Shown: piece by piece, positions 336 to 26,347 of the stretch
Position numbering within the stretch: position 1 is the stretch's first letter
Layout of the letters: the number at the start of each line of letters is the position of its first letter
DNA from: Shigella phage Sf11 SMD-2017
Sequence record: MF158038
Direction: 5' to 3' (one strand)
Length of the DNA stretch: 46,454 nucleotides
The notes under the pieces: generated by a model
Databases searched by the model: none
Seen by the model: only the letters and a program-made list of their open reading frames with translations
What the model was told of the DNA's origin: nothing
Program-made: the position numbers and the translations under genes

Positions 336-482
336 CGATTTTTTGTGGTAGATGATTTCCGTGCCAATAACAGTATTGAAAAATTCAGGGCGAGCCTGTG
401 CTGTGTTGCGAAAGATAATTCGTGGCTTTTTGTAACCAGAAAGATGGAAGAAGGCGAAGTGTCTGTTCGGAGAATTAAATGA
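231..482 (+). CDS. Hypothetical early protein (likely start at ATG 258 after a GGAGG RBS)
   Basis: ORF track; ctggaggttgtcATG at 258; first gene of the plus-strand early block. Confidence 0.5.
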   Translation: MSLLLIDCLEVVMYRFGSAMAEVYEFVSGMSIGEVRFFVVDDFRANNSIEKFRASLCCVAKDNSWLFVTRKMEEGEVSVRRIK

Positions 483-2812
483 TGATTGGTTATGAAGATT
501 ACCGCAAATGTGGCTTCCCTATTATTGGAATCCATGCAATGGATATCGACCGCAATTGCACATGCGGTGATCCAGAATGCAATGCTGCCGGTAAGCATCC
601 GGTTATGAGTAACTGGCAGCTTGGAGTTATATGGGCTGATGACCAGATTGAAAATATGGCTGAATATGGTCAATTGCAGTCATTCGGTGTCCTTGTGAAT
701 GGTTATCTGGTAGTTGATATTGATCCACGCAACGGAGGTAATGATGGATATGAATCACTTTGTGATGCCTTAGACGTAGAGCTTGCTGACGAAGCTGGCT
801 TTACTGTTAAGACTGGTGGTGGTGGTCGCCACATCTATTACAAACTTCCTGAAGGAATAAAGCTGCGCTCTCATGACAGAAGGTTTAAGGGTATTGACTT
901 TAAATCATCTGGTTTTGTTGTTGGCTGCGGCTCATTCCATAAGTCAGGTAACTTTTATGAAGCTGAGCATGGCTCCCCTTCAGAGATAACTGAATGTCCA
1001 TCTGAACTTATTGAGCTTTTGTCGCGCCCTGAGAGAACGGAAGACGAAGTTTTCACGCTTGATAGTAAAAATTACAGCATTGCCGAAATGGAGGATATGC
1101 TCAAATACATCAAAGATGGTGATGAGTATGACCCATGGCTTCATGTAGGTATGGCTATCCACGAAGCTACAGAAGGCAATGGTTTTGAGCTTTGGGATAG
1201 ATGGTCATCGCAGTTCAGCAAATACAGAGCTGAAGAGATGGACGCAAAATGGCATTCCTTTGGAAAGGACGGTGTTAGCGAAAAGATAACAGAAGCAACG
1301 CTGGTTTATCTCGCGCAAGAGGGAGGGTGGGTAAGGCAAGTAACTTTTGAGGCTACGCCAGAGGAAATTGAGAAACTTGAGTCTTTCGAACGAGAGATGG
1401 CAATGGGTGTTGGTGAATGCCCTGTAGAGTACAAAAGTGTTGATGTCCGTTATCCCCCTGGATTTGTTGGTCGCCTTACGGCGTGGATTAATAAGAACTG
1501 TGCAGAGAAGCGAGAGAACATTGCAGCACTTGCCGCATTGCATGCCGCATCCATGATTTGCGGAGCGTCATCTGATATTTATCTTACAAACAGGAAAGCC
1601 TTACCAAACCTGTTTGCTGTTGGCATAGCTGGTTCAGGTTCAGGTAAGGGTGATGTCCTTGCTGCGCTACAAAAGATAATTGATTGCTCAGGATTGAGTA
1701 AGACAGTTGCCGGTAAGATACGTTCAGAGCGTGCGATATATGAAGGTCTTTGCGCTAACCAGATGTTTAATATCATCATGGATGAGATTGGGATAAAACT
1801 TGGTAGTGTTGTTGGTCAGAAAGTAAGCGAGTACAACATGGCAACCGCTGGTGCAATCATGGAGGCTTACACGTCAGAAGTTCTTTATTGTGACCAGCGG
1901 GTTACTGAGGATTTCATTAAGTCTTTCGAAAAGAGAAAGGCTATGCTGTTGATGGCTATTGAGGAAAATGAGATACAGGCAGACCCAGTTGACATTAAGT
2001 GTCAGTTTGATGATGTGATAAACAGAATTGATGGAGCTATAAGGAATCCATTTTTTTCAATCTTTGGTGTGTCTACTGATGATCAGTTTAAGCGACTTAT
2101 CACTGAAGAAAACATTAAGTCAGGTCTTATGGGTCGCGCAATGATTATGCAGGAGTTGCAGGAGATTGCTGACGAAAACGAAAACGTTAACTACTGTGAT
2201 CTACCTATGGATATGCAACTGACCATAAAAACAATAATAAATGGCGGAACGGCTGGGCACAAAAACTGGACAGACTCAATAATCAGTCAAAAAGAAAGAC
2301 GGATTATAAAAGCTACGCCTGAAGTTTCTCAGCTCGCTAAGGAGTTCTTCTCATGGATTAAAACCGTTGCAAGAAAGCATGTAGAAAATGGTACTGGTTA
2401 TCACCCATTGATAAACAGATGCGCCGTGAAGGTGGCAAAGATTGCTGGCATTCTCGCGTGCGATACTGGCGTCATAACCATGGAGCACTTGAGGTATGCG
2501 GTAGCATTAACAATTAAATCAACAAGCGATCTGATGATGCGTGCTGACAGTATCGCCGGAGCGAAGTCTAAAGCTATGGAAGAAAGAATTGAAGGTATTT
2601 TCTCCATGGTTAAAGAATATGTGAAGCGTGGAATGACCAAAACAGCAATGGTTAGAGGGGTAGCAAAAGAAGGTGGGTATAAACGTGCTGATGTCGAGAG
2701 GTGCGTAGAGAAGTTGTTATCAGATGGTATTATTTGCATTGATGAAAATGCAAAAAGAACATCTCACAACGTAATAATTTACAAATTAACAAATGATGAG
2801 GTTGAGATATGA
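479..2812 (+). CDS. DNA primase-polymerase (AEP prim-pol N-terminal domain, PriCT-like middle, P-loop NTPase/helicase-like C-terminal domain)
   Basis: 777-aa ORF; prim-pol-like motifs (LVVDIDPRNGG, GGGRHIYY, GIDFKSSGFVV), W..W..KW.SF primase C-terminal motif, Walker A GIAGSGSGKGD. Confidence 0.8.
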   Translation: MMIGYEDYRKCGFPIIGIHAMDIDRNCTCGDPECNAAGKHPVMSNWQLGVIWADDQIENMAEYGQLQSFGVLVNGYLVVDIDPRNGGNDGYESLCDALDVELADEAGFTVKTGGGGRHIYYKLPEGIKLRSHDRRFKGIDFKSSGFVVGCGSFHKSGNFYEAEHGSPSEITECPSELIELLSRPERTEDEVFTLDSKNYSIAEMEDMLKYIKDGDEYDPWLHVGMAIHEATEGNGFELWDRWSSQFSKYRAEEMDAKWHSFGKDGVSEKITEATLVYLAQEGGWVRQVTFEATPEEIEKLESFEREMAMGVGECPVEYKSVDVRYPPGFVGRLTAWINKNCAEKRENIAALAALHAASMICGASSDIYLTNRKALPNLFAVGIAGSGSGKGDVLAALQKIIDCSGLSKTVAGKIRSERAIYEGLCANQMFNIIMDEIGIKLGSVVGQKVSEYNMATAGAIMEAYTSEVLYCDQRVTEDFIKSFEKRKAMLLMAIEENEIQADPVDIKCQFDDVINRIDGAIRNPFFSIFGVSTDDQFKRLITEENIKSGLMGRAMIMQELQEIADENENVNYCDLPMDMQLTIKTIINGGTAGHKNWTDSIISQKERRIIKATPEVSQLAKEFFSWIKTVARKHVENGTGYHPLINRCAVKVAKIAGILACDTGVITMEHLRYAVALTIKSTSDLMMRADSIAGAKSKAMEERIEGIFSMVKEYVKRGMTKTAMVRGVAKEGGYKRADVERCVEKLLSDGIICIDENAKRTSHNVIIYKLTNDEVEI

Positions 2813-3231
2813 TTAATTACAAGTATCTGGTGATGAGAGGTTTGTATGACTATTTTGAGTCAGAAAATCCTGAGCGCGCACACGATAACGCAATATCCAT
2901 GATGACAGGAAAGCACCTGATGGAAGTTTACTACTGGAAAATGCCTGTATTCCGCTGCAATATGGGTATCTGCATTGATGATGACGTACTGTTTTGTCGA
3001 ATACAATATGAAAACAATGTTGGCATAGTGACAGCGTCGTACAGGGATGTTGCAAGGAAATCCGGAAACTGGCATCCAAGCGAAGTATTTGCTGGTGACG
3101 CACTATTTAATTTCTGCAAGGCGTTTGGTGTTTTGTATGAGGATGTAAGCAAAGAGTATAGCGGAAGGCGTGAGAAAGATAGCTTGAGTTCCAAGGGTGT
3201 GATTAACTACAAGGATAAAAACCATGTGTAA
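2809..3231 (+). CDS. Hypothetical protein
   Basis: ORF track; start overlaps primase stop (ATGA), consistent with operon coupling. Confidence 0.5.
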   Translation: MINYKYLVMRGLYDYFESENPERAHDNAISMMTGKHLMEVYYWKMPVFRCNMGICIDDDVLFCRIQYENNVGIVTASYRDVARKSGNWHPSEVFAGDALFNFCKAFGVLYEDVSKEYSGRREKDSLSSKGVINYKDKNHV

Positions 3232-3427
3232 CACAATGAGAACAATATCAGGCGAACTTTGTCGCTCAGAAGGTTCATGGCATTTCATGCCGAATGGTTA
3301 TTCGCCATGGTTTTTCTGGAGCGGGATTAACAAAGCATGGATTCTATCTAATTACCACGTGATTGATGATTACTGGCACAGATTTTGTGTTGGTTATGTT
3401 GATATTTCAAAATTGATGATTAAGTGA
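3224..3427 (+). CDS. Hypothetical protein
   Basis: ORF track; tight packing within the early operon. Confidence 0.4.
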   Translation: MCNTMRTISGELCRSEGSWHFMPNGYSPWFFWSGINKAWILSNYHVIDDYWHRFCVGYVDISKLMIK

Positions 3428-3437
3428 GGATAAGAAA

Positions 3438-3695
3438 ATGAATGTGAAAGATAAAGTTTTATACGTGATGAGAAAGAGAAAATCCATTGAGGAGGAGACA
3501 CTTGGGATTTGTCGCAAGTTCTCCGTGGCTACGTGGAATCTCCGTCTATCGATGGTGAATGAATTTCCTGATGATGAATGGACAACAGCAAAGTTACGGA
3601 AGGTTCTGATTTCTCTTTGTAAGGATGGCATTGTATCAAAGGATTTAAATAACAGTCGCATTGGTAATTCAGTTTGGATTCTGGAGGAAAACTGA
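3438..3695 (+). CDS. Hypothetical protein
   Basis: ORF track; RBS-like aggataagaaaATG. Confidence 0.45.
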   Translation: MNVKDKVLYVMRKRKSIEEETLGICRKFSVATWNLRLSMVNEFPDDEWTTAKLRKVLISLCKDGIVSKDLNNSRIGNSVWILEEN

Positions 3696-3976
3696 TGGCT
3701 AACTTGCAACTTGCCGTCAAAGGCGAATACTTCGATGCCATGATTCGTGGAGAGAAAACGGAAGAGTATCGCCTGTGCAATGACTACTGGAATAAACGAA
3801 TTATGTTCCGGGAATATGACCGCCTGATTATCACAAAGGGATATCCGAAGCGCGACGATTCCAGTCGAAGAATTGATGTTCTGTATGGCGGATATGAAAT
3901 CAAGACAATCACACACCCCCACTTCGGCGATAAACCGGTAAAGGTATACGCAATAAAAGTTAACATCAAAGCATAA
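3674..3976 (+). CDS. ASCH-domain protein (likely start ATG 3695)
   Basis: Contains ASCH-like GxKxxExR motif (RGEKTEEYR) near the N-terminus; about 93 aa from the ATG at 3695. Confidence 0.6.
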   Translation: MDSGGKLMANLQLAVKGEYFDAMIRGEKTEEYRLCNDYWNKRIMFREYDRLIITKGYPKRDDSSRRIDVLYGGYEIKTITHPHFGDKPVKVYAIKVNIKA

Positions 3977-3978
3977 CA

Positions 3979-4001
3979 AAAAGCCCGCAAACGCGGGCTT
4001 T
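3979..4001. terminator. Bidirectional intrinsic terminator (agcccgcaaacgcgggct + T-run)
   Basis: GC hairpin flanked by A-run and T-run between convergent genes. Confidence 0.7.
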
Positions 4002-4002
4002 A

Positions 4003-4287
4003 TTATTTAACAATCCATTTTGTAACAGCTGGCCTTAAATCTTCCTTTCTGAAGAGTCCACCAGTAAGTTTTTCGGCATCAATTGCTGCTGTAGCGCTAA
4101 TTCTTCCCCTTGACACCCACTGATTGACAGCCTGTTTTGACACACCAAGAAACCTTGCTAGTTGTGATTGCCCTCCAACATAATCAATCAGCTCTGATAG
4201 CTTCGTCTGTTCCATTTCTCTTATCTGTTCTGCGATGCTTTTCATGTGTTTACCTCTGCTATCTGTATGCAGCAATAATGAACTCAA
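4003..4287 (-). CDS. HTH (Cro/CI-type) DNA-binding regulator; probable start at 4245
   Basis: Small protein with helix-turn-helix-like segment (QSQLARFLGVSKQAVNQWVSRGR); only minus-strand gene in the early block; own promoter 4275-4303. Confidence 0.7.
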   Translation of the reverse strand: MSSLLLHTDSRGKHMKSIAEQIREMEQTKLSELIDYVGGQSQLARFLGVSKQAVNQWVSRGRISATAAIDAEKLTGGLFRKEDLRPAVTKWIVK

Positions 4288-4303
4288 AAAAAATTTTCGT
4301 CAA
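4275..4303 (-). promoter_or_regulatory. Candidate promoter for the Cro-like gene (TTGACG-N17-CATTAT), divergent from the plus-strand TTGACG at 4325
   Basis: cgtcaa at 4298-4303 and ataatg at 4275-4280 on plus strand give a minus-strand -35/-10 pair with 17-bp spacer; inverted TTGACG copies 22 bp apart. Confidence 0.45.
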
Positions 4304-4379
4304 GGTATTGCGTTTACCATCACGTTGACGTATCTTTAAGTCACACCAGCGATATGCTGAGTTAAATCGAGAGGACACT

Positions 4380-5222
4380 ATGAGCTTATCAATGATTCAA
4401 AAACCAAAACCAGCTGCACCAATCATAACATTGGTTGGTACTCCAGGTGTAGGCAAGACAACTCTTGCTGCGCTATTCCCAAACCCAGTGTTTATTCAGG
4501 CTGAAGAGATCACTGGTGTTTTTGACGACTGGGATGATGAAAAGAAACCAGATTCATTTCCTGTACTGAAGCGAGCTGATGCTAAACGCAAAACAAGCAC
4601 AAAGGATGATTTGCTGTCACAGCTACGCGCATTAATTACTGAGGAACATAATTACAAAACGCTTGTAATTGACTCAATCACAAGCCTGCATTCAATGTTT
4701 GAGCATGAGGTTTGTGAAAACTACGGTGTTGACAATGTGGGTTCTGCGGCTGGTGGTTACAACAAAGGATATATTGTTGTTTCTGAAATGCACGCTGAAA
4801 TAATAAATGCATGTAAGTATCTTCGCAAAGAAAAAGGGATGAGCATTATTTATCTTGCACACGCAGGTGTTAAAAAGATGAAGAATCGCCCTGATGCTGA
4901 TGAATACACCGTTTACACACTTGACATGCATGACGCTTCAGTTTCTGGTTATGTGAATCTGAGTGATGCTGTTATTTACATCAGGAATGAGGAGTTTGTG
5001 AAAGGGACTGAGACTGATAAGAAAGGGCAAGTCACCAAGTTTGGGAAGGTTGTTCAGACTGGTCAGCGAGTTCTTATTACCTCTGGCGACGGTCGGGTTG
5101 GATATGTTAATGCAAAAAACAGATACAACCTTGAGCCTGAAATTCCTTTTGAAAAAGGTGAGAACCCACTTTTGAGTGATATTAAATATTATGCATCTCT
5201 ACGAGATAACCAAACAGCTTAA
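4380..5222 (+). CDS. Sak4-like RecA-fold AAA ATPase (recombination/annealing-associated)
   Basis: Walker A GTPGVGKTT near N-terminus, about 280 aa, followed by Gp157-like and SSB-like genes. Confidence 0.7.
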   Translation: MSLSMIQKPKPAAPIITLVGTPGVGKTTLAALFPNPVFIQAEEITGVFDDWDDEKKPDSFPVLKRADAKRKTSTKDDLLSQLRALITEEHNYKTLVIDSITSLHSMFEHEVCENYGVDNVGSAAGGYNKGYIVVSEMHAEIINACKYLRKEKGMSIIYLAHAGVKKMKNRPDADEYTVYTLDMHDASVSGYVNLSDAVIYIRNEEFVKGTETDKKGQVTKFGKVVQTGQRVLITSGDGRVGYVNAKNRYNLEPEIPFEKGENPLLSDIKYYASLRDNQTA

Positions 5223-5670
5223 TGAACTGCTGGCGATGGAGGATATTCCACGGGATCAGATTGAAGATACCATCAATCTTATTGAAGAGGAGTTTGAAGG
5301 AAAGGCTGAAATGGTCGCTGCTTACATTCGTGAGCTTGAAGCTGATGAAGCTGGACTTAAATCCGAGATTGACCGTCTTTCTGAGCGTAAGCGTGTTTTA
5401 GTTGCTAAGATTGATAACCTTAAAGATTATCTTCGTCAGAACATGATGGCGTCAGGAAAGACAAACATCAAAGGTAAGTTGTTCAGTATCACGCTTGGAA
5501 AACCATCACCAGTTCTTGATGTGTTTGTCCCTGTTGAGCAGCTTCCTGAGCAGTACCGCGTTGTGAAAGTGTCGGCAGATAACGCAGCAATTAAAAATGC
5601 GATAAAAGCCGGGATTGAAATTAATGGTTGCGCCATCACCGACGGCAAACCGAAACTGATCATCAAATAA
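5176..5670 (+). CDS. Siphovirus Gp157-like protein (likely start 5191)
   Basis: About 160-aa coiled-coil-rich protein immediately after Sak4-like ATPase, the typical module arrangement. Confidence 0.55.
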   Translation: MILNIMHLYEITKQLNELLAMEDIPRDQIEDTINLIEEEFEGKAEMVAAYIRELEADEAGLKSEIDRLSERKRVLVAKIDNLKDYLRQNMMASGKTNIKGKLFSITLGKPSPVLDVFVPVEQLPEQYRVVKVSADNAAIKNAIKAGIEINGCAITDGKPKLIIK

Positions 5671-6209
5671 ATCGAGAGGACACAAAAATGGGTTTCTGGA
5701 ATCTTTCTGACGGTAAAGCTGTTGAATCTAAATCTGAATTTGAACTGGGTGGTGGTTTCGAAGTAATTCCTGATGGTAGCCGCGTTCTTGCTGCCGTTGA
5801 AGAATGTAAAGACGACCAGTGGGAAGGTGAGCGATTCTTCAATCTTAAGTGGCGAATCCTTGAGGGTGAGTATAAAAATCGCATCATCTTTCAGAAGCTG
5901 AAGGTATTTAGTTCAAAAGAGAAACAGCGTGATAATGCTATCACTATGCTTGCAGCAATTGACGCAAACGCTGGTGGTAAGCTGATGGCATCAGGGAAAG
6001 AGCCGACTGATTTTGCTATTGCCAGCGCGCTTGCAAATCGCCCGATGATTCTTCTTCTGCGCGTTTGGGAGTCTGAGGATAAGCAAAAAACTGGCAACTA
6101 TGTGGCTGGTGTTTTCAGTCGTCAACAGACAAAAGCAGCGCCTGCTCCTAAGCAATCAGCGCCATCTAACGAGCCGCCGATGGACTTCGACGACGACATT
6201 CCGTTTTAA
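5628..6209 (+). CDS. SSB-like protein carrying a host-type SSB C-terminal acidic tip (PPMDFDDDIPF); likely start ATG 5688
   Basis: C-terminus ...SAPSNEPPMDFDDDIPF matches the conserved E. coli SSB tip; RBS tcgagaggacac upstream of ATG 5688. Confidence 0.7.
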   Translation: MRHHRRQTETDHQINREDTKMGFWNLSDGKAVESKSEFELGGGFEVIPDGSRVLAAVEECKDDQWEGERFFNLKWRILEGEYKNRIIFQKLKVFSSKEKQRDNAITMLAAIDANAGGKLMASGKEPTDFAIASALANRPMILLLRVWESEDKQKTGNYVAGVFSRQQTKAAPAPKQSAPSNEPPMDFDDDIPF

Positions 6210-6220
6210 TTTAGATTGTA

Positions 6221-8131
6221 ATGACAGGGCCATTCGTGGCCCTTTTTATTCGAGAGGACACTATGAAAGTACAGCTTAGAACATACCAACAAGAAGCTGT
6301 TGATTCTGTTATAGGTCATATTCGTTCAAGCGTTTCATCGTGCATGATCATCTTGCCTACAGGGTCTGGAAAAAGCGTTGTTGTTGCATCAATCGCCGAT
6401 TGGGTATTTAAAAATACTGGAAAGCGCGTTCTGTGTGTTGCACCAACAAGCGAGTTAGTTGTTCAAAACAGGCAGCGGTATCTTTCTCTAACAGGAGAGC
6501 CAGCCAGCATGTTCAGTGCAAAGGCTGGACCAAAAAACCTGCGTCATCCGGTGGTGTTTGGTTCACCAGTTACAATCAAGAACTCAATAGAGATGTTTGG
6601 TGATAAGTATGGCGCTGTCATTATTGATGAATGTGATGGAATAACACCAACCATTAAATTTATTATTAATGAAATGAAGCGTCGCAATCCAAAACTGCGT
6701 GTTATTGGAATGACCGCTACTCCTTATCGCCTTGGAACTGGATACATCTACAAAGAGCACTATTTAGACGGTCCCACAGATGAAGAAACGGCAATTGACC
6801 CATATTACGACAAAGTCGTTTATGAGCTTGAGGCTAAATTCCTCATTGAACACGGATACCTTACGCCGCCAGTTACAGAGCCTGTTTTTGATGAATATGA
6901 TACGTCTTGTCTTGAAAAGGATAAGTTGGGTCGTTACACGACAGCTTCAGTTGAAAAGGCAATGGTTGGAAAAGGAAGGAAAACATCACGTATTGTTGAA
7001 GATATTATCCGTCGCTCTGTTAATCGGCGCGGAACGATGATTTTTGCCAGCACCAAGAAACACGCTATGGAGATAATGGAGTCACTTCCTCCCGGTTCTT
7101 ATAGTTATGTTTTTGGTGATATGCCGACAGCGGAACGCAATAAGGCAATATCAGACTTCAAGACGCAAAAAGTTAAATACATCGTCAACCAGAATATCCT
7201 TACTGTAGGGGTTGATGTTCCTCATTGTGATCACATAGCAGTAATGAGAGCCACAGAATCACCAAGGCTCTACCAGCAAATAATTGGCAGGGGGACGCGT
7301 CTTTATGAAGGAAAGGAAGATTTTCTTGTCAGCGATTACGCAGGCAACATCCAGCGCCACTTTTCCGAGACTGGGGACTTGTTTACTCCAGAAATAAAAG
7401 CAACAAGGAAAAAACCATCAGTGCCAATGGATGTAAAATGCCCGTTATGTGGTTTTATCAATGAATTTGGCGTGCGCCCAAATCCGGAAAATCTGGAAGT
7501 TGACAAAGAAGGTTACTGGCTTGATTTGGCTGGTGACAGAGTGATGATTGATATTTTTGATAAGTCAGGTGAAAAAATTGGAAGCAAGCCTATGCCTGCT
7601 CATTTTGGCAGAAGATGTAAAAACTACGTTATGCAAGGTCCACTAAGGGAAATGCACAGATGTACTTATAAATGGTCGGTAAAAGAGTGTCCTGATTGTG
7701 GGTTTGAAAATGATATAGCAGCAAGAAATTGCACATCATGCGGAGCTGAAATCATTGACCCCAATCAAAAGCTAAAGGAAGAAGCTGACAGGCTTGATTC
7801 TTCTCCTTATGCAACCAAGCAATCAAGCGTAACTATGATGAACATTATGAAGCATTACGTTTCAAGTGGCGAGGATTTGGTGCACGTAAAATTTGCTATT
7901 GAACAGAAGCCATTTTTTGTTAGCAAGTTCTACAATCCAAACTCTGAGAAGGAATGGATGAAGAAGGAGTGGGAAGAGTTTTGCGGTAAGTGCTTTGGTG
8001 AATCCGATATGTCAATTGATGATGCAATAGCAAAAAGAGATGAAGCTGTCGCACCATCGGTGATCATGTTCAGAAGAGATAAAGGAAGTAAATATTTCAA
8101 CGTTAAAGGCATGTATTGGGGGGTATTATGA
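6221..8131 (+). CDS. SF2 (DEAD/DEAH-type) helicase with C-terminal zinc ribbons; likely start ATG 6263
   Basis: Motifs LPTGSGKS (Walker A), IIDECD (DExD), TATP, QQIIGRGTR; three CxxC...CxxC pairs in the C-terminal region. Confidence 0.8.
   Translation: MTGPFVALFIREDTMKVQLRTYQQEAVDSVIGHIRSSVSSCMIILPTGSGKSVVVASIADWVFKNTGKRVLCVAPTSELVVQNRQRYLSLTGEPASMFSAKAGPKNLRHPVVFGSPVTIKNSIEMFGDKYGAVIIDECDGITPTIKFIINEMKRRNPKLRVIGMTATPYRLGTGYIYKEHYLDGPTDEETAIDPYYDKVVYELEAKFLIEHGYLTPPVTEPVFDEYDTSCLEKDKLGRYTTASVEKAMVGKGRKTSRIVEDIIRRSVNRRGTMIFASTKKHAMEIMESLPPGSYSYVFGDMPTAERNKAISDFKTQKVKYIVNQNILTVGVDVPHCDHIAVMRATESPRLYQQIIGRGTRLYEGKEDFLVSDYAGNIQRHFSETGDLFTPEIKATRKKPSVPMDVKCPLCGFINEFGVRPNPENLEVDKEGYWLDLAGDRVMIDIFDKSGEKIGSKPMPAHFGRRCKNYVMQGPLREMHRCTYKWSVKECPDCGFENDIAARNCTSCGAEIIDPNQKLKEEADRLDSSPYATKQSSVTMMNIMKHYVSSGEDLVHVKFAIEQKPFFVSKFYNPNSEKEWMKKEWEEFCGKCFGESDMSIDDAIAKRDEAVAPSVIMFRRDKGSKYFNVKGMYWGVL
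6226..6250 (+). terminator. Intrinsic terminator (gggccattcgtggccc + T-run)
   Basis: GC hairpin followed by tttttatt. Confidence 0.6.
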
Positions 8132-8583
8132 TTTTTCCAGAAGGCATTAAGGTATATGGAAATTTAGATTACAGGAACAAAAAGTGTCCGTCAGAAGATG
8201 CTGAACTGGAGACTTTTGTCAATCAGATAAGGAAGCTATATCCTGACTTTGCAAGAGTTATGATTCATGTGCCAAATGAAGGAAAGCGTAAAGGGTATGA
8301 AGTTGAAAACCTGAAGAAAAAAGGCTCGCTAAACTTCGGGGCGTCAGACATCATTATCATCGGAAAGCAATCATTCGTTATGGAGATGAAGAGAATGGAT
8401 CATACTTTATCAAAATGGCAGCCCGGTCAAATGGCATACCTTAAGGCAGCAAAAGAATTAGGTTCCTTCGCGTGTGTATGCCTTGGTTGGGAAGCTGCAA
8501 TAATGGCATTTAACGACTGGAGAGCAATGAATTACCCAAACTATAAAAAAACATCAGATCCATTGATATTTGATGGTTTTTAA
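8116..8583 (+). CDS. VRR-NUC domain nuclease
   Basis: Motifs HVPNEGKRKG, GASDIIIIGK and EMK consistent with the VRR-NUC / PD-(D/E)xK fold. Confidence 0.7.
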   Translation: MGGIMIFPEGIKVYGNLDYRNKKCPSEDAELETFVNQIRKLYPDFARVMIHVPNEGKRKGYEVENLKKKGSLNFGASDIIIIGKQSFVMEMKRMDHTLSKWQPGQMAYLKAAKELGSFACVCLGWEAAIMAFNDWRAMNYPNYKKTSDPLIFDGF

Positions 8584-23302: not shown

Positions 23303-23349
23303 TTTAAATCTCCTGTTGTTTGATTAGCATGATTTTAGCATATTCCTGT

Positions 23350-23378
23350 TGACGTAGATTGAGAGGGTGTTTATAGTA
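23350..23378 (+). promoter_or_regulatory. Island promoter TTGACG-N17-TATAGT with TGACGTAGA operator-like motifs
   Basis: ttgacg 23350-23355, tatagt 23373-23378; motif gacgtagattgag inside the spacer and gacgtagaaac at 23382. Confidence 0.6.
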
Positions 23379-23399: not shown

Positions 23400-23735
23400 A
23401 TGTTAGAGGTGATGAAGATGAAAGATGAATTCAAAGGCACAAAGGGTCCGTGGGCATTCAAGAAAGAAAAAGGCGAGCAAGAGTGGTTTGTGTTTCAGGC
23501 TGGAACGTTAAAGAAAAGATATGGCGGGACTATCCGAACTCCAGTGGCGGAAGAAATTAATGATAAACATGACGCCCAACTTATCGCCTCAGCACCAGAG
23601 TTACTTGAGTCTCTTTGTCAGCTTCGCGATTATGTTGAGGATGTTTGCGCAGTATCGTCGGATGATTGTCATGAAGATCATCCATTAAATCTGGCGAACA
23701 AAACAATTAAGAAAGCATTAGGAAAGAAACAATGA
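23400..23735 (+). CDS. Hypothetical protein
   Basis: ORF track; first gene after the island promoter. Confidence 0.5.
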   Translation: MLEVMKMKDEFKGTKGPWAFKKEKGEQEWFVFQAGTLKKRYGGTIRTPVAEEINDKHDAQLIASAPELLESLCQLRDYVEDVCAVSSDDCHEDHPLNLANKTIKKALGKKQ

Positions 23736-24541
23736 AAACACTAAGCAAAATCTATTCAGACAAAGAAACGCGCAACGGAATCGCTGTCAATAAAACCTAT
23801 CTCGTGCCAGTGGAGCGAATCTATCTGGAGCCGGGATATAACATCCGTGAAGCAGACGAGCAACACGTTGAATATTTCGCGCAGTGCTGGGAATCAGGTC
23901 AGCCACTGCCAGCATTAACAGTTATTCCTGACGAGAAGGGAATCCGCATTCTTGATGGTCAGCATCGCTATCTCGGCGCATTGCGTGCCATTGAGCGTGG
24001 CGCACCAATAGTTCGCATTGAGTGCAAAGATTTCACTGGCGACGAGGCTGATAAAATTGCCTTCATGGTGTCATCAAGTCAGGGTAAGCAACTTGACCCA
24101 TTTGAGCGCGCAAAGGCTTACACGCGACTGAAAGGTTTTGGCTGGACGAATGAAGAAATCGCCAAGAAGGTAGGTCGTTCAGTATCTGACGTGCAGATGC
24201 ATCTGTCACTGGGTGATGTGCCTGCGGAAGTAAAAGCGCGAATCAGTGCCGGGCAAATCAGCTATGCAAATGCCGTAGCAGTAACGCGTGAGCATGGCGA
24301 TGATGCTGTTAAAGTTATCGACGAGGCGGTAGAGGAAGCAAAAGCACAAGGCAAAGATAAGGTTACAGCAAAGGTGCTGAAATCGAAAAAGATTAAGCCG
24401 GTAGACCGTCTGATTGAACTGTTGAAGCCAGCAGACCATGTGATTCTACCTGCTGGTCATGTGGTGACAGAGGATGAGGAGTTTATCCAGATTCCTGTTG
24501 CTGATATTCACGAGGTTATGGCAATTCTGGAGAAGATGTGA
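23732..24541 (+). CDS. ParB-like nuclease-domain (ParB/Srx fold) protein
   Basis: ILDGQHRYLGA motif (the DGxHR signature of ParB N-terminal domains); 269 aa. Confidence 0.65.
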   Translation: MKTLSKIYSDKETRNGIAVNKTYLVPVERIYLEPGYNIREADEQHVEYFAQCWESGQPLPALTVIPDEKGIRILDGQHRYLGALRAIERGAPIVRIECKDFTGDEADKIAFMVSSSQGKQLDPFERAKAYTRLKGFGWTNEEIAKKVGRSVSDVQMHLSLGDVPAEVKARISAGQISYANAVAVTREHGDDAVKVIDEAVEEAKAQGKDKVTAKVLKSKKIKPVDRLIELLKPADHVILPAGHVVTEDEEFIQIPVADIHEVMAILEKM

Positions 24542-24744
24542 TGAATGAGCGTTATGATAAATTAATTGCAGGATGGGGAGGACCCCTGCTGGCCAAGAAA
24601 GTTCACTATTTCCGCGATGGGGAAATTATCAGTGAATGTGGGAAATGGATGTTTGGTGGAGGAAGAGAAGATATATCGGCATGGAAACCTGATGCAGTAT
24701 GCAAACAGTGTCTTAAGAAGCACGAGAAGATGGAGAAGATGTGA
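24538..24744 (+). CDS. Hypothetical small protein
   Basis: ORF track; ATGA coupling with upstream gene; Cys-containing. Confidence 0.4.
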   Translation: MMNERYDKLIAGWGGPLLAKKVHYFRDGEIISECGKWMFGGGREDISAWKPDAVCKQCLKKHEKMEKM

Positions 24745-24918
24745 TGACTCCTGAACAATTCATCGAAAAACAACTGCGAACCAAACTACCTGACATTGAC
24801 AAGATGGCAATTGATGCGGCAATTCAGTATTACAAGCGCAATCAGAGCGCAAAGAAGGGCGGCATTTTTGAGGAATGCCTGAAGGTTGCAAAACAGCACA
24901 TGATTAAGGTGAAGTGAT
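24745..24918 (+). CDS. Hypothetical small protein (57 aa)
   Basis: ATG 24745 overlapping previous stop; fills the gap before the DnaN-like gene. Confidence 0.35.
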
Positions 24919-25453
24919 GAAACTAAAAATCAGCAAATTATTACTTGAATCAGCGTTAATCTTTCAGGCACGCAATGATGTGCGCTACTACCTGAACGGC
25001 ATCTGCTTTATGCCTGATGGTCGCATTGCATCAACTGACGGTCATCGCGCATTCATTGGTGGCAGCCATGACAACGAACTTGCTGAAAATGTGATTGTAA
25101 AGGTCAGCAAGTCTCCGACAAAACGCTATGACTACGCCATCATTGATACCAAGTCGAAAATTGCAACGTATCATGATGAAGATGGCGTGATGGTTGGTGC
25201 TGGCATCTGCGAAGAGATTGATGGTCGATTCCCTGATATTGATCGCGTGATACCAAAGGAAACGAGAGCAGCAGAGGAAATTGGCTTCAATGCTGGATAT
25301 CTGGTTGATATTGAGAAAGCTGCGAAGCTATTTAATCCTAAATTCTGTGGTGTTAAGTTTGAATTGAATGGAAATACAAATGCCGCGGTTTGCTGTCTTA
25401 GTGCGCCATCTGGCGAGACTGCAAAGATTGTTGTTATGCCTATGCGACTATAG
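24914..25453 (+). CDS. Truncated DnaN (DNA polymerase III beta sliding clamp)-like protein, 179 aa
   Basis: Segments DVRYYLNGICF...ASTDGHRAF, DGRFPDIDRVIPKE, EIGFNAGYLVD and C-terminal VVMPMRL closely parallel E. coli DnaN (DVRYYLNGMLFE...ATDGHRLAV, DGRFPDYRRVLPKN, EIGFNVSYVLD, ...VVMPMRL), recalled from memory. Confidence 0.75.
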   Translation: MMKLKISKLLLESALIFQARNDVRYYLNGICFMPDGRIASTDGHRAFIGGSHDNELAENVIVKVSKSPTKRYDYAIIDTKSKIATYHDEDGVMVGAGICEEIDGRFPDIDRVIPKETRAAEEIGFNAGYLVDIEKAAKLFNPKFCGVKFELNGNTNAAVCCLSAPSGETAKIVVMPMRL

Positions 25454-25456
25454 CAA

Positions 25457-25485
25457 TAAAAAGCCCCTTTCGGGGCTTTTCTTTT
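25457..25485. terminator. Bidirectional terminator (agcccctttcggggct), near-identical to the one at 19276
   Basis: Same hairpin sequence as at 19280-19295, flanked by A/T runs. Confidence 0.7.
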
Positions 25486-25486
25486 A

Positions 25487-26347
25487 TCACGCCAGATAAG
25501 TATCATCCTCAAACCATGAAACGTAAGCATTGATATTCTGCGCCGCAGTATCCAGTGATGTTATGCGAAGCAGATACGTTGTGTTTGGTGCCATGATTAT
25601 TTGCTCGCCTAATCTAGCCTGCGAGTTACCCTGCCCCTGATTCGATGCGTTACCCTCGCTATATGTTGCTGCGACCGTCAGCTGTCCAATACTTGTGATC
25701 GTAGAGCCAGTAAGAAGCTGTGCCGTAGCTGCTTGTGGCGTTATATCGTTTGGGTTGTTAATCTCTGCCGCCGCACCTCCAGTGGCAACTGCACCGCGAT
25801 AGATTGATGCAACAACACCTTTCCCTGTGTAACCAATAATGCGCTGGTTGAATATCACCTGCTTTGTTCCGGTGATAAAAATGCTGTCAAGGTTTGAGCT
25901 GCCAGCGACATCAGTTACTCTGCGCGACGCAGTGAACAGCTTACCTTGTTTGTTGGCGCGCTCAATATATGACTGAGTGGTAATATCGCTTAACGCCACG
26001 TCAGGCTGAAGGTTTACCACCGATTGCGGAGACACGCCAGCTCGCCACACCGAAACGCGCAGCGAACTTACCGCTGCTGGCAATTCAGTTTTTATTATCT
26101 TCAGGCGCAATGCCACGCCGTAATAATTATTATTGTTGACGTCAATCCAGTAATCACCGGACTCAAATGGCGACACCTTCACGGATACGGTTCCGCTAAC
26201 CAGTGGCGTGTATGCACCAGATGAATCAAGTGGCATCACGTTAACCTGTAGTGCCGTCCAGTCAGCAGACATCAGTTCATCAAGCATTACCTCGCCGTCA
26301 TCACGCGTGGTGAATATGTCGTATCTTACAGCCATAGGAACCCCCAA
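25487..26347 (-). CDS. Hypothetical virion-associated protein (possible decoration/fibre)
   Basis: 286 aa Gly/Thr/Ser/Ala-rich ORF downstream of capsid gene. Confidence 0.4.
   Translation of the reverse strand: MGVPMAVRYDIFTTRDDGEVMLDELMSADWTALQVNVMPLDSSGAYTPLVSGTVSVKVSPFESGDYWIDVNNNNYYGVALRLKIIKTELPAAVSSLRVSVWRAGVSPQSVVNLQPDVALSDITTQSYIERANKQGKLFTASRRVTDVAGSSNLDSIFITGTKQVIFNQRIIGYTGKGVVASIYRGAVATGGAAAEINNPNDITPQAATAQLLTGSTITSIGQLTVAATYSEGNASNQGQGNSQARLGEQIIMAPNTTYLLRITSLDTAAQNINAYVSWFEDDTYLA

Follow-up and report, generated by a model that had tools for sequence, protein, structure and literature searches.

We found that Shigella phage Sf11 SMD-2017 encodes a half-length relative of the bacterial beta sliding clamp (DnaN), here called the mini-clamp, in which the docking pocket of the clamp appears to have been kept nearly residue for residue while the ring-closing parts were lost. 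The window analysed was the whole stretch of 46,454 nucleotides of record MF158038. The likeness to DnaN, which the sequence-only reading of this DNA had proposed, was already on record: many GenBank phage records name the family product 'DNA polymerase III beta subunit', so the clamp homology is not new, and the new point is the putative pocket kept without the ring. Our best reading of the mini-clamp is a docking module for host clamp clients that forms no ring, may self-associate and would act either as a recruiter or as a decoy. We tentatively favour, with a probability of roughly 0.4, a stand-alone pocket module serving as an open docking hub that would bring host clamp clients to phage replication.

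The mini-clamp is a true but truncated DnaN homologue

The mini-clamp gene lies on the plus strand at 24917-25453 (stop codon included) and encodes 178 aa from an ATG at 24917; a GTG at 24914 is also possible and gives an open reading frame of 24914-25453 with a product of 179 aa. The ATG is probably the true start because it overlaps the stop codon of the upstream gene (TGATG) and because an equivalent Met starts 92% of the family. Comparison with 34 relatives gave a dN/dS of ~0.10, and the gene is under strong purifying selection.

Using phmmer against PDB sequences, we matched the product to the beta clamps of E. coli and Enterobacter with E-values of 1.7e-13 to 6e-13 (6e-13 for E. coli beta); query residues 8-155 paired with beta 136-289, and residues 119-179 with beta 313-366. 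The dnaN profile TIGR00663 matched at E 1e-8 with 34.5 bits, which is below its cutoff of 137.65, and Pfam beta_2 (16 bits) and beta_3 (15.1 bits) both fell under the cutoff of 27, while the Pfam profile search returned no match to DNA_pol3_beta_1. In addition, PHROG 947, 'processivity factor', matched at E 1e-11, and a Foldseek comparison of the AlphaFold2 (AF2) monomer model with E. coli beta gave E 3e-8 (TMq 0.64-0.68). The mini-clamp is thus a true DnaN homologue that shares common ancestry and fold with clamp domains. At 178-179 aa it falls short of a DnaN proper, which has three clamp-fold domains (~366 aa) and scores above the curated cutoffs. The sequence-only reading had proposed a half-length DnaN homologue with an E. 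coli-like C-terminus, and both the profile search and the monomer prediction bore out this resemblance: the truncated relative is genuine, and its alignment to beta was well past chance and ran over long stretches instead of being confined to short low-complexity ones.

The family is large and widespread. PHROG 3007 matched over the full length (E 7.6e-64), with residues 2-179 paired to positions 1-186 of the 190-position profile, and 288 phage records contain relatives; proteins of phages swi2, IME207, C1 and Skate are 90-93% identical to the mini-clamp. Among 50%-identity clusters there were 2102 matches, nearly all of 165-215 aa, from phages whose hosts range from Escherichia and Salmonella to Vibrio, Burkholderia and Acinetobacter; some of the carriers are E. 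coli phages in culture, e.g. the BASEL phage Bas80. A literature search for functional work on the family, or on truncated clamps from phages, gave genome-annotation mentions only.

PHROG 3007 and RefSeq label the family 'RusA-like Holliday junction resolvase'. This name, together with the DnaN Pfam and TIGR cutoffs that were not reached, would favour a RusA-type resolvase or a decaying dnaN remnant, but either is extremely improbable. A resolvase was ruled out because the mini-clamp had no match to RusA (Pfam PF05866) even at E-values up to 10 and its fold is that of a clamp, and a remnant was ruled out by the low dN/dS, by the existence of thousands of equally sized, full-length relatives and by the confident, compact fold. 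The RusA-like label is therefore wrong. At one related locus (L085), a genuine RusA (PF05866, E 3.6e-15) is encoded by a separate gene adjoining the family member, and such a neighbour may be where the spread of the label began.

The docking pocket is the best-conserved part of the protein

In the bacterial clamp, the QLxLF-type motifs of Pol III alpha, epsilon and delta, Hda, Pol II, IV and V, MutS/L and ligase dock in a cleft between domains II and III. We mapped 17 residues of this pocket, as listed in a review (PMC11139829), onto the mini-clamp, and 16 were identical to E. coli beta at an overall identity of ~29%. The single change was L177 to A, and V344 lay outside the mapping.

The motifs picked out in the sequence-only reading (DVRYYLNG, TDGHR, DGRFPDIDRVIPK, EIGFNAGYLVD and the C-terminal VVMPMRL) are all present in the product, and their codons all lie on the plus strand. 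DVRYYLNG (24977-25000; beta 150-157) carries pocket residues R152 and L155, and across the family its R, Y and L are kept in 98%, 96% and 92% of members. TDGHR (25034-25048) corresponds to beta T172-R176, that is, subsite I and the bridging His, with T at 91%, G at 99% and H at 94%. The linker between domains II and III, DGRFPDIDRVIPK (25220-25258; beta 238-250), holds pocket residues P242, R246 and V247, of which the P is kept in 99%. EIGFNAGYL (25277-25303; beta 316-324) supplies N320 and Y323 of subsite II (N 76%, Y 90%), and VVMPMRL (25430-25450; beta 360-366) supplies V360, M362, P363, M364 and R365 (M 96%, P 92%, R 86%).

Furthermore, among 130 diverged members the mean conservation was 0.76 for pocket positions versus 0.37 elsewhere (Mann-Whitney p 9e-8), a contrast that is somewhat inflated, the pocket being most conserved in all DnaN and the homologues having been picked by sequence similarity. 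Of the 20 positions that the family conserves best, 10 belong to the pocket (hypergeometric p 3e-7). Judged from its sequence, the mini-clamp retains the hydrophobic cleft for clamp-binding motifs, with both subsites I and II. When a consensus peptide was fused to the protein in an AF2 construct, it docked weakly, with a pLDDT of 43 (at least 50 for DLF) versus 28 for a scrambled control. The earlier suggestion that the fragment could serve as a decoy for clamp-binding proteins fits a pocket that is both its best-conserved part and nearly the same as that of E. coli.

The predicted fold lacks both ring-closing surfaces

The AF2 monomer was predicted as a compact unit with high confidence (pLDDT 97.1, pTM 0.91) and had only two long helices, versus four expected for complete domains II and III. 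All of domain II but its second helix remains, together with the native II-III linker and a single beta-alpha-beta-beta-beta half of domain III. Domain I is absent, with no residues aligned to beta 1-129, and so is the rest of domain III. On the preferred alignment, which retains N320/Y323 and the C-terminus, beta ~251-312 are missing, and the lost half of domain III is the first one, with the I272/L273 helix and the strand bearing I305. The protein thus amounts to ~1.5 clamp domains, and the description of it as roughly single-domain had to be revised.

The normal beta dimer is built head to tail, with the edge of domain I pairing with the first half of domain III, and the title of PDB entry 3pwe cites an R103C/I305C pair at this interface. 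The loss of domain I and of half of domain III therefore removes both ring-closing surfaces, and a normal beta2 ring cannot form, in agreement with the sequence-only reading. That reading had also supposed that the fragment might co-assemble with host beta or poison it, and this idea gained no positive evidence. A poison subunit would cap the interface of a host beta monomer or a loader-opened ring and block its closure; by pseudo-symmetry, the free sheet edge of the domain II half would resemble the edge by which domain I meets domain III in beta2, and the sequence is closest to enterobacterial beta. However, both native interface elements are absent, the conserved positions fall in the pocket and not in the interface, the beta dimer is very stable, and Sf11, having no polymerase itself, depends on a functional clamp of the host. 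We consider poisoning very unlikely.

Charge and possible self-association

The family is far less acidic than beta, with a median pI of 8.25 versus 5.25; the Sf11 protein itself is slightly acidic (pI 6.3). Conserved Lys/Arg residues lie on or beside the two helices, at positions 20, 135, 138 and 143. These basic residues and the family pI hint at contact with DNA.

A fused two-copy AF2 model gave a pTM of 0.73 versus ~0.43 estimated for independent copies, which hints at self-association, with the caveat that linker fusion can produce artefactual contacts. When this model was compared with the beta arc by Foldseek, TMq was 0.28 and only one copy superposed; a symmetric dimer would not be sequentially alignable in any case. 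Strand 122-126 became regular in the two-copy model. Since the shallower alignment could equally account for this change, we did not rely on it as a sign of a strand-swapped interface.

Self-association raises the possibility of a self-assembling minimal clamp, in which several copies (e.g. two dimers, 4 x 1.5 = 6 domain equivalents) would form a closed or C-shaped processivity factor on phage DNA. The two-copy pTM implies a confident mutual arrangement, the internal pseudo-two-fold symmetry of the clamp fold would permit symmetric edge-to-edge pairing, and E. coli beta* (domains II and III) is said to be active as an oligomer. Against this, the two-copy model does not follow the beta arc, its contacts may be produced by the linker, no loader is encoded, and a ring of subunits with two helices each would be without a third of its DNA-facing lining; we regard such a clamp as improbable. 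A slightly better, though still poor, chance is given to a novel processivity or docking device, in which a symmetric self-assembly would sit on phage DNA without help from the host loader. It would be either a C-shaped dimer or a ring built from four 1.5-domain subunits, with both faces bearing pockets, and it would pass the host Pol III core and further clamp clients, e.g. Pol I and ligase, to the replisome of the phage.

Genomic context of the mini-clamp gene

The mini-clamp gene is the last of a five-gene island on the plus strand. The island is headed by a sigma70-like promoter, TTGACG-17-TATAGT, at 23349-23377 (10 of 12 matches in a consensus scan), which is a pattern match of a kind no commoner in this region than shuffled expectation. 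The first gene (23400-23735) encodes 111 aa of unknown function (PHROG 1273). It is followed by a gene for a 269-aa ParB-like protein (23732-24541; HTH_ParB, KorB; DGQHR motif) that matched PHROG 1033 at E 1e-90, Pfam HTH_ParB at E 2.5e-11, and TIGR00180 under its cutoff. Next come a small Cys-containing protein of 68 aa (24538-24744; PHROG 2358), which only some relatives have, and a 58-aa protein (24741-24917; PHROG 4439) whose gene is translationally coupled to that of the mini-clamp via the TGATG overlap. A GC-rich hairpin followed by a T-run at 25459-25480 (plus strand) forms a terminator that ends the island between convergent genes. None of the five island proteins had a PADLOC defence-system match. 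Among relatives with an identity of 66% or more and a long enough locus, nearly all have the ParB-like gene upstream of the mini-clamp gene; at 69% identity or more, every relative has the PHROG 4439 gene 155-394 bases upstream, mostly ~173.

The proposal of a promoter-driven island next to a ParB-like gene thus stood. The added claim that it sits apart from the replication module held for Sf11 but not for distant relatives, in which the gene lies inside replication modules. Our search for related loci with a sub-alignment returned mostly close relatives. In lambdoid loci, the mini-clamp gene has cII on one side and an O-like gene plus a DnaB or DnaC-like gene on the other; in PrimPol-Sak4-SSB modules, it directly follows an SF2 helicase and a nuclease; and at another locus it stands beside a DnaT-domain gene and RusA. 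These positions in distant relatives point to a role in replication.

Replication equipment of Sf11 and other carriers

Sf11 has genes for a PrimPol/D5-like protein, Sak4, SSB and an SF2 helicase. We found no DNA polymerase in Sf11, with all open reading frames of at least 400 aa otherwise accounted for, and the phage is predicted to depend on the host polymerase. The Sf11 SSB-like protein ends in APSNEPPMDFDDDIPF, the exact tip of E. coli SSB. Other carriers, such as Dhillonvirus 'rolling' and Burkholderia phage AH2, encode their own DNA polymerases, which rules out a family restricted to polymerase-less phages and means that recruitment of host Pol III is not its universal role.

No convincing clamp-binding motif was found in the real coding frames of Sf11 proteins, and none was found in the DNA polymerase of 'rolling'; an evident phage-encoded client of the mini-clamp was therefore rejected. 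The only matches in those frames, QMHLSL in the ParB helix-turn-helix and QMKLL in an open reading frame of the structural region, were considered as client motifs and set aside, as chance or structure explains them better.

The presence of the family with or without a phage polymerase fits a host-directed role, in which the free pocket would compete with host beta as a decoy or sponge that titrates Hda, translesion polymerases, MutS/MutL, delta or Pol III, and host replication and repair would be shut down or re-tuned without any recruitment to phage DNA. The pocket is almost identical to that of the host, the ring-forming parts are lost, and in Sf11 the gene sits outside the replication module, in its own promoter-driven island; there is also a precedent for phage interference at the clamp pocket, e.g. 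MuC of phage Mu. However, a general sponge would starve phages that rely on host Pol III and beta, such as Sf11 and the lambdoid carriers, so a decoy would have to be client-selective. In addition, the conserved basic helix residues and the predicted self-association would be superfluous for a simple decoy, and in many cases the gene forms part of a replication operon. We consider the decoy doubtful, though well ahead of a self-assembled clamp.

Proposed role of the mini-clamp

We therefore prefer the open docking hub. The mini-clamp would be expressed early, from its own promoter in Sf11 and from the replication operon in other phages, and it would bind QLxLF-type motifs off the ring. It probably self-associates, and as a hub that does not depend on the loader it would deliver clamp clients of the host to phage DNA or to the replication complex of the phage. 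The main client in Sf11 would be the host Pol III machinery, because this phage has no DNA polymerase. By analogy with herpesvirus UL42/UL44, the polymerase would be tethered without DNA being encircled. The same strategy may be used elsewhere in Sf11, whose SSB-like protein exactly copies the C-terminal docking tail of host SSB.

The clamp pocket is the central place of docking in bacterial replication and repair, and it is also an antibiotic target; here a widespread phage family with thousands of sequence clusters has apparently stripped the clamp down to this pocket. If so, the family would offer a natural, minimal and soluble pocket domain for structural work and inhibitor screening, would point to an undescribed phage route for taking over or re-routing the host replisome, and would explain a gene that is annotated uninformatively or wrongly in hundreds of phage genomes. 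It may also help to explain how helicase and primase are coupled to host Pol III in phages without a DNA polymerase. If symmetric self-assembly were true, the phage, with its SSB-tail mimic, would possess its own version of each of the two interaction hubs in the bacterial replisome. Bas80 and other cultured carriers make the idea directly testable.

Comparison with known systems

The proteins of PHROG 3007 and the 'DNA polymerase III beta subunit' of Swiduovirus, Skatevirus-like phages, Dhillonvirus and other siphophages belong to the same family as the mini-clamp, with no difference in kind. Full-length phage DnaN proteins (345-390 aa; e.g. Burkholderia phage KL1 gp28 and Pseudomonas phage 73 ORF027) are likewise phage-borne and encoded near replication genes. 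Unlike the mini-clamp, they have three domains, and their genes usually adjoin that of a phage DNA polymerase; they can thus be presumed to be ring clamps proper. The mini-clamp model matched them at a TMq of 0.4-0.6, worse than short phage proteins (0.7-0.88).

With E. coli beta (PDB 2POL/1MMI), the mini-clamp shares beta ~130-250 and 313-366, the fold, the interdomain linker, the C-terminal MPMRL and all but one of the mapped pocket residues. It differs in being half as long, in lacking domain I, the second helix of domain II, half of domain III and both ring-closing surfaces, in belonging to a far less acidic family and in scoring under the Pfam and TIGR00663 cutoffs. Another shortened clamp is E. 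coli beta*, a product of the host gene that starts at ~Met135 and has no domain I but complete domains II and III. This ~26-kDa protein reportedly arises from an internal dnaN* start, as Skaliter, Paz-Elizur and Livneh are said to have described in 1996. The N-terminal boundaries are nearly equal, with phage residue 8 corresponding to beta 136. However, the mini-clamp belongs to a separate gene family and has two further internal deletions, and its AF2 model shows neither helix 2 of domain II nor a complete domain III; it is not a protein of the beta* type.

The herpesvirus processivity factors UL42, a monomer, and UL44, a C-shaped dimer, have the clamp fold but form no closed ring and use no loader, and they tether a polymerase by way of a peptide-binding site that corresponds to the clamp pocket. 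Unlike the mini-clamp, each consists of two complete domains; the polymerase bound is that of the virus itself, and DNA binding has been demonstrated. With no detectable sequence relationship to the mini-clamp, UL42 and UL44 offer a functional analogy to the proposed mechanism.

The mini-clamp gene and its relationship to DnaN

The ORF with the motifs quoted in the sequence-only reading was found at 24914-25453 (+), with a listed GTG start and a product of 179 aa. The Shine-Dalgarno-like sequence AAGGTG precedes an ATG at 24917, which overlaps the stop codon of the upstream gene as TGATG, and the Met equivalent to this ATG is the first residue in 92% of the members of the family (short phage DnaN-like proteins, PHROG 3007). 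Because of these features, the product, here termed the mini-clamp, is most likely a protein of 178 aa starting at ATG 24917, and GTG 24914 is probably not used. The gene showed a median dN/dS of 0.096 against 34 relatives, demonstrating strong purifying selection and ruling out a decaying fragment.

When all PDB sequences were searched with phmmer, the mini-clamp matched enterobacterial beta clamps at E 1.7e-13 to 6e-13, and BLASTP against E. coli DnaN (beta) gave E 4e-13 with 29% identity. In addition, PHROG 947 ('processivity factor') was matched at E 1e-11. The DnaN resemblance claimed from the sequence was recovered by both profile (TIGR00663, E 1e-8) and structure searches (Foldseek, E 3e-8), and judging from these E-values the likeness is far above chance. 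Length, domain count, interface and curated cutoffs all set the mini-clamp apart from bona fide DnaN, from which it is nonetheless clearly derived and whose client pocket it keeps.

Architecture and self-association

The alignment starts at mini-clamp residue 8 (beta 136), spans domain II together with the linker between domains II and III (DGRFPDxxRVxPK, beta 238-250), and picks up again at EIGFN (beta 316-320) to run to the C-terminal VVMPMRL (beta 360-366). Since the clamp domain is an internal duplication, the alignment of segment 119-155 is ambiguous: it can alternatively be placed on the first half of domain III, and N320, Y323 and the C-terminus are retained only if it is aligned to the second half. 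Residues 133-149 (KAAKLFNPKFCGVKF, window 25310-25360) resemble RAAILSNEKFRGVRL from the first half of domain III in E. coli, and the segments on either side (EIGFNxxYL and the C-terminus) correspond to the second half; this half-domain looks mixed, or may retain an ancestral loop. An AlphaFold2 model built from a 135-sequence alignment was compact (pLDDT 97.1, pTM 0.91), with ~12 strands and only two long helices (8-17 and 127-140), and its top Foldseek match was E. coli beta (TMq 0.64-0.68). Alignment and model together show that the mini-clamp comprises domain II minus its second helix, the linker and one beta-alpha-beta-beta-beta half of domain III; the earlier description as a half-length clamp fragment holds, but with ~1.5 domains it is not 'roughly single-domain'.

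In beta2, the head-to-tail dimeric ring of beta, the sides of the dimer interface come from domain I and from the other half of domain III, and the mini-clamp lacks both; the PDB title of 3pwe names an R103C/I305C cross-link across this interface. As the interface elements are absent on both sides, a normal beta2-type ring is predicted to be impossible, as the sequence-only reading had proposed. That the mini-clamp, with neither side of the interface, caps host beta is very unlikely. We also folded a single chain of consensus peptide-linker-mini-clamp-linker-scrambled peptide-linker-mini-clamp (alignment A3). Its pTM of 0.73 over 439 residues (81 of them linker or peptide) exceeded our own estimate of ~0.43 for two independent copies; AlphaFold thus sets the two copies in a confident mutual arrangement, which may be an artefact of the fusion. 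Against beta, only one copy of this model superposed in Foldseek (TMq 0.28). It is unlikely that the mini-clamp self-assembles into a ring or C-clamp with the role of a genuine processivity factor, to which such an arrangement might point. The consensus peptide in the fused chain gave a weak signal, with a pLDDT of 43 (residues DLF at least 50), where the scrambled control reached 28 and the linkers 29-34.

Conservation of the docking pocket

The pocket, the cleft at the domain II/III junction that docks clamp-binding motifs, is formed in beta by R152, L155, T172, G174, H175, R176, L177, P242, R246, V247, N320, Y323, V344, V360, M362, P363, M364 and R365 according to a 2024 review (PMC11139829). 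Sixteen of the 17 mapped pocket residues are identical to E. coli in the mini-clamp (the exception is L177, replaced by A), at an overall identity of ~29%. Among 130 diverged family members, mean conservation was 0.76 in the pocket versus 0.37 at other positions (Mann-Whitney p 9e-8), a contrast somewhat inflated because the pocket is best conserved in all DnaN and the homologues were gathered by sequence similarity. Furthermore, pocket residues occupy 10 of the 20 most conserved family positions (hypergeometric p 3e-7), and the pocket-flanking D150, Y154, G157, D238, G239 and D243 make up most of the remainder. At the sequence level, what the mini-clamp has kept from beta is thus the docking pocket.

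Distribution and annotation of the family

An exhaustive HMMER scan of 1.84 billion cluster representatives returned 2102 matches to the family, 202 of them at E <=1e-10. Among the 150 matches listed, nearly all are 165-215 aa long, short fragments apart, and full-length DnaN (373-378 aa) enters only at ~E 1e-12. Relatives were present in 288 GenBank phage records, from hosts including Salmonella, Escherichia, Vibrio, Klebsiella, Proteus, Acinetobacter and Burkholderia. Among the phage proteins in BFVD, short ones of 163-250 aa have the mini-clamp fold (TMq 0.7-0.88), whereas full-length phage DnaN proteins fit the model worse. A PDB sequence search found no solved structure of a short family member, and we found no functional study of the family in the literature, where it is mentioned only in annotations, for example as gp20 (209 aa) of Burkholderia phage AH2.

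Many records already label relatives 'DNA polymerase III beta subunit', so the DnaN homology of the family is visible in databases and not in itself a novelty; what appears to be undescribed so far is the 'pocket-only' architecture, with its implications. PHROG 3007 and RefSeq (e.g. NC_054649.1 gp73) instead carry the label 'RusA-like Holliday junction resolvase'. The mini-clamp has no RusA profile match and its fold is that of a clamp; together with the purifying selection, this effectively refutes both a RusA resolvase and a remnant. A genuine RusA gene lies immediately upstream of one family member (locus L085, 9561-9923), which may be how the label spread.

Genomic setting

Replication and DNA metabolism are the recurrent setting of mini-clamp genes, as seen from their neighbours in relatives. 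In lambdoid loci the gene has cII on one side and, on the other, an O-like gene that precedes DnaB or a DnaC-like loader; in L085 it follows a DnaT-domain gene and RusA; and in Pantoea phage Nafs113 and Vibrio phage 1.087.A it comes directly after an SF2 helicase and a PHROG 824 protein, in a replication module of the same kind as that of Sf11. In Dhillonvirus-type phages (L003, 5138-5947; L087, 10601-11365) it adjoins an Nmad5 (nucleotide modification associated domain 5) gene, not ParB.

In Sf11, whose window is a complete IMG/VR contig, the region shares ~90% identity with Escherichia phage vB_EcoS_swi2 (Swiduovirus) and with relatives whose hosts are Salmonella, Klebsiella and E. coli. The mini-clamp gene is the last of five genes in an island that runs on the other strand from the structural genes around it, and the promoter-driven island with a ParB-like neighbour described earlier was indeed seen: a putative sigma70-like promoter (23349-23377) heads a PHROG 1273 gene, the ParB-like gene (23732-24541; HTH_ParB, DGQHR motif), a PHROG 2358 gene (24538-24744, +; 68 aa) and a PHROG 4439 gene (24741-24917; 58 aa). 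The PHROG 2358 gene occurs in only some relatives of the island, and Cys pairs in its product (SECGKW and CKQC) are suggestive of a zinc ribbon. A hairpin terminator (25459-25480) at the 3' end separates the mini-clamp gene from a convergent structural gene ending at 25487 (-) and may work in both directions. The PHROG 4439-mini-clamp linkage is kept without exception down to 69% identity, and both the ParB-like and PHROG 4439 genes lie upstream in nearly all relatives of at least 66% identity with a long enough locus; relatives below 60% lack both. ParB proteins are themselves DNA clamps, and for this reason a functional pairing with the mini-clamp is possible.

Within the replication module (479-8583) lie genes for PrimPol/PriCT/D5-like and PHROG 824 proteins, a Sak4-like ATPase, a DUF669 SSB and an SF2 helicase. 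Every window ORF of at least 400 aa was assigned as primase, helicase, tail, tape measure, portal, terminase or virion protein, so no conventional DNA polymerase is found among them and Sf11 must, by its gene content, depend on that of the host. The C-terminus of the SSB-like protein (5628-6209, +) reads ...SAPSNEPPMDFDDDIPF; its terminal APSNEPPMDFDDDIPF matches the E. coli SSB tip exactly, and identity to that C-terminal tip holds for the last 16 residues. In E. coli SSB this tip is the tail on which chi, primase, RecQ and other proteins dock, and the phage protein is a second mimic of a host replisome hub in this genome. The module differs from that of swi2, the closest named phage (NC_054649.1 38770-47206), annotated with primase, helicase, exonuclease VIII and recombinase as opposed to PrimPol/D5-like, Sak4, DUF669 SSB and SF2 helicase; replication modules appear to have been swapped by mosaic exchange around the conserved island.

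Possible function of the mini-clamp

Taken together, these results show that the mini-clamp is a compact clamp fragment of non-ring type, which is conserved and whose pocket signature is intact. The sequence-only reading was right in what it observed, and its interpretation as a poison or decoy is supported in part. Such a protein would bind host proteins off the ring through their clamp-binding motifs. The family also occurs outside polymerase-less phages, since Dhillonvirus 'rolling' and AH2 encode their own polymerases; no clamp-binding motif was found in the 'rolling' polymerase. Occurrence in phages with their own polymerase fits the main rival, in which the mini-clamp is a client-selective decoy and adjusts replication or repair in the host; we consider this possible if somewhat doubtful. 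We tentatively prefer, at a probability of roughly 40%, an open docking hub that would deliver host clamp clients to the phage replication complex or phage DNA. A hub is favoured over a general sponge because a sponge would harm phages needing Pol III and beta, and it is preferred because basic residues on or beside the two helices are conserved in the family (positions 20, 135, 138 and 143) and acidity in the family is far lower than in beta (median pI 8.25 versus 5.25). This reading of the mini-clamp is directly testable in cultured E. coli phages. Among known systems, herpesvirus UL42/UL44 may offer an analogue of the proposed open docking hub.
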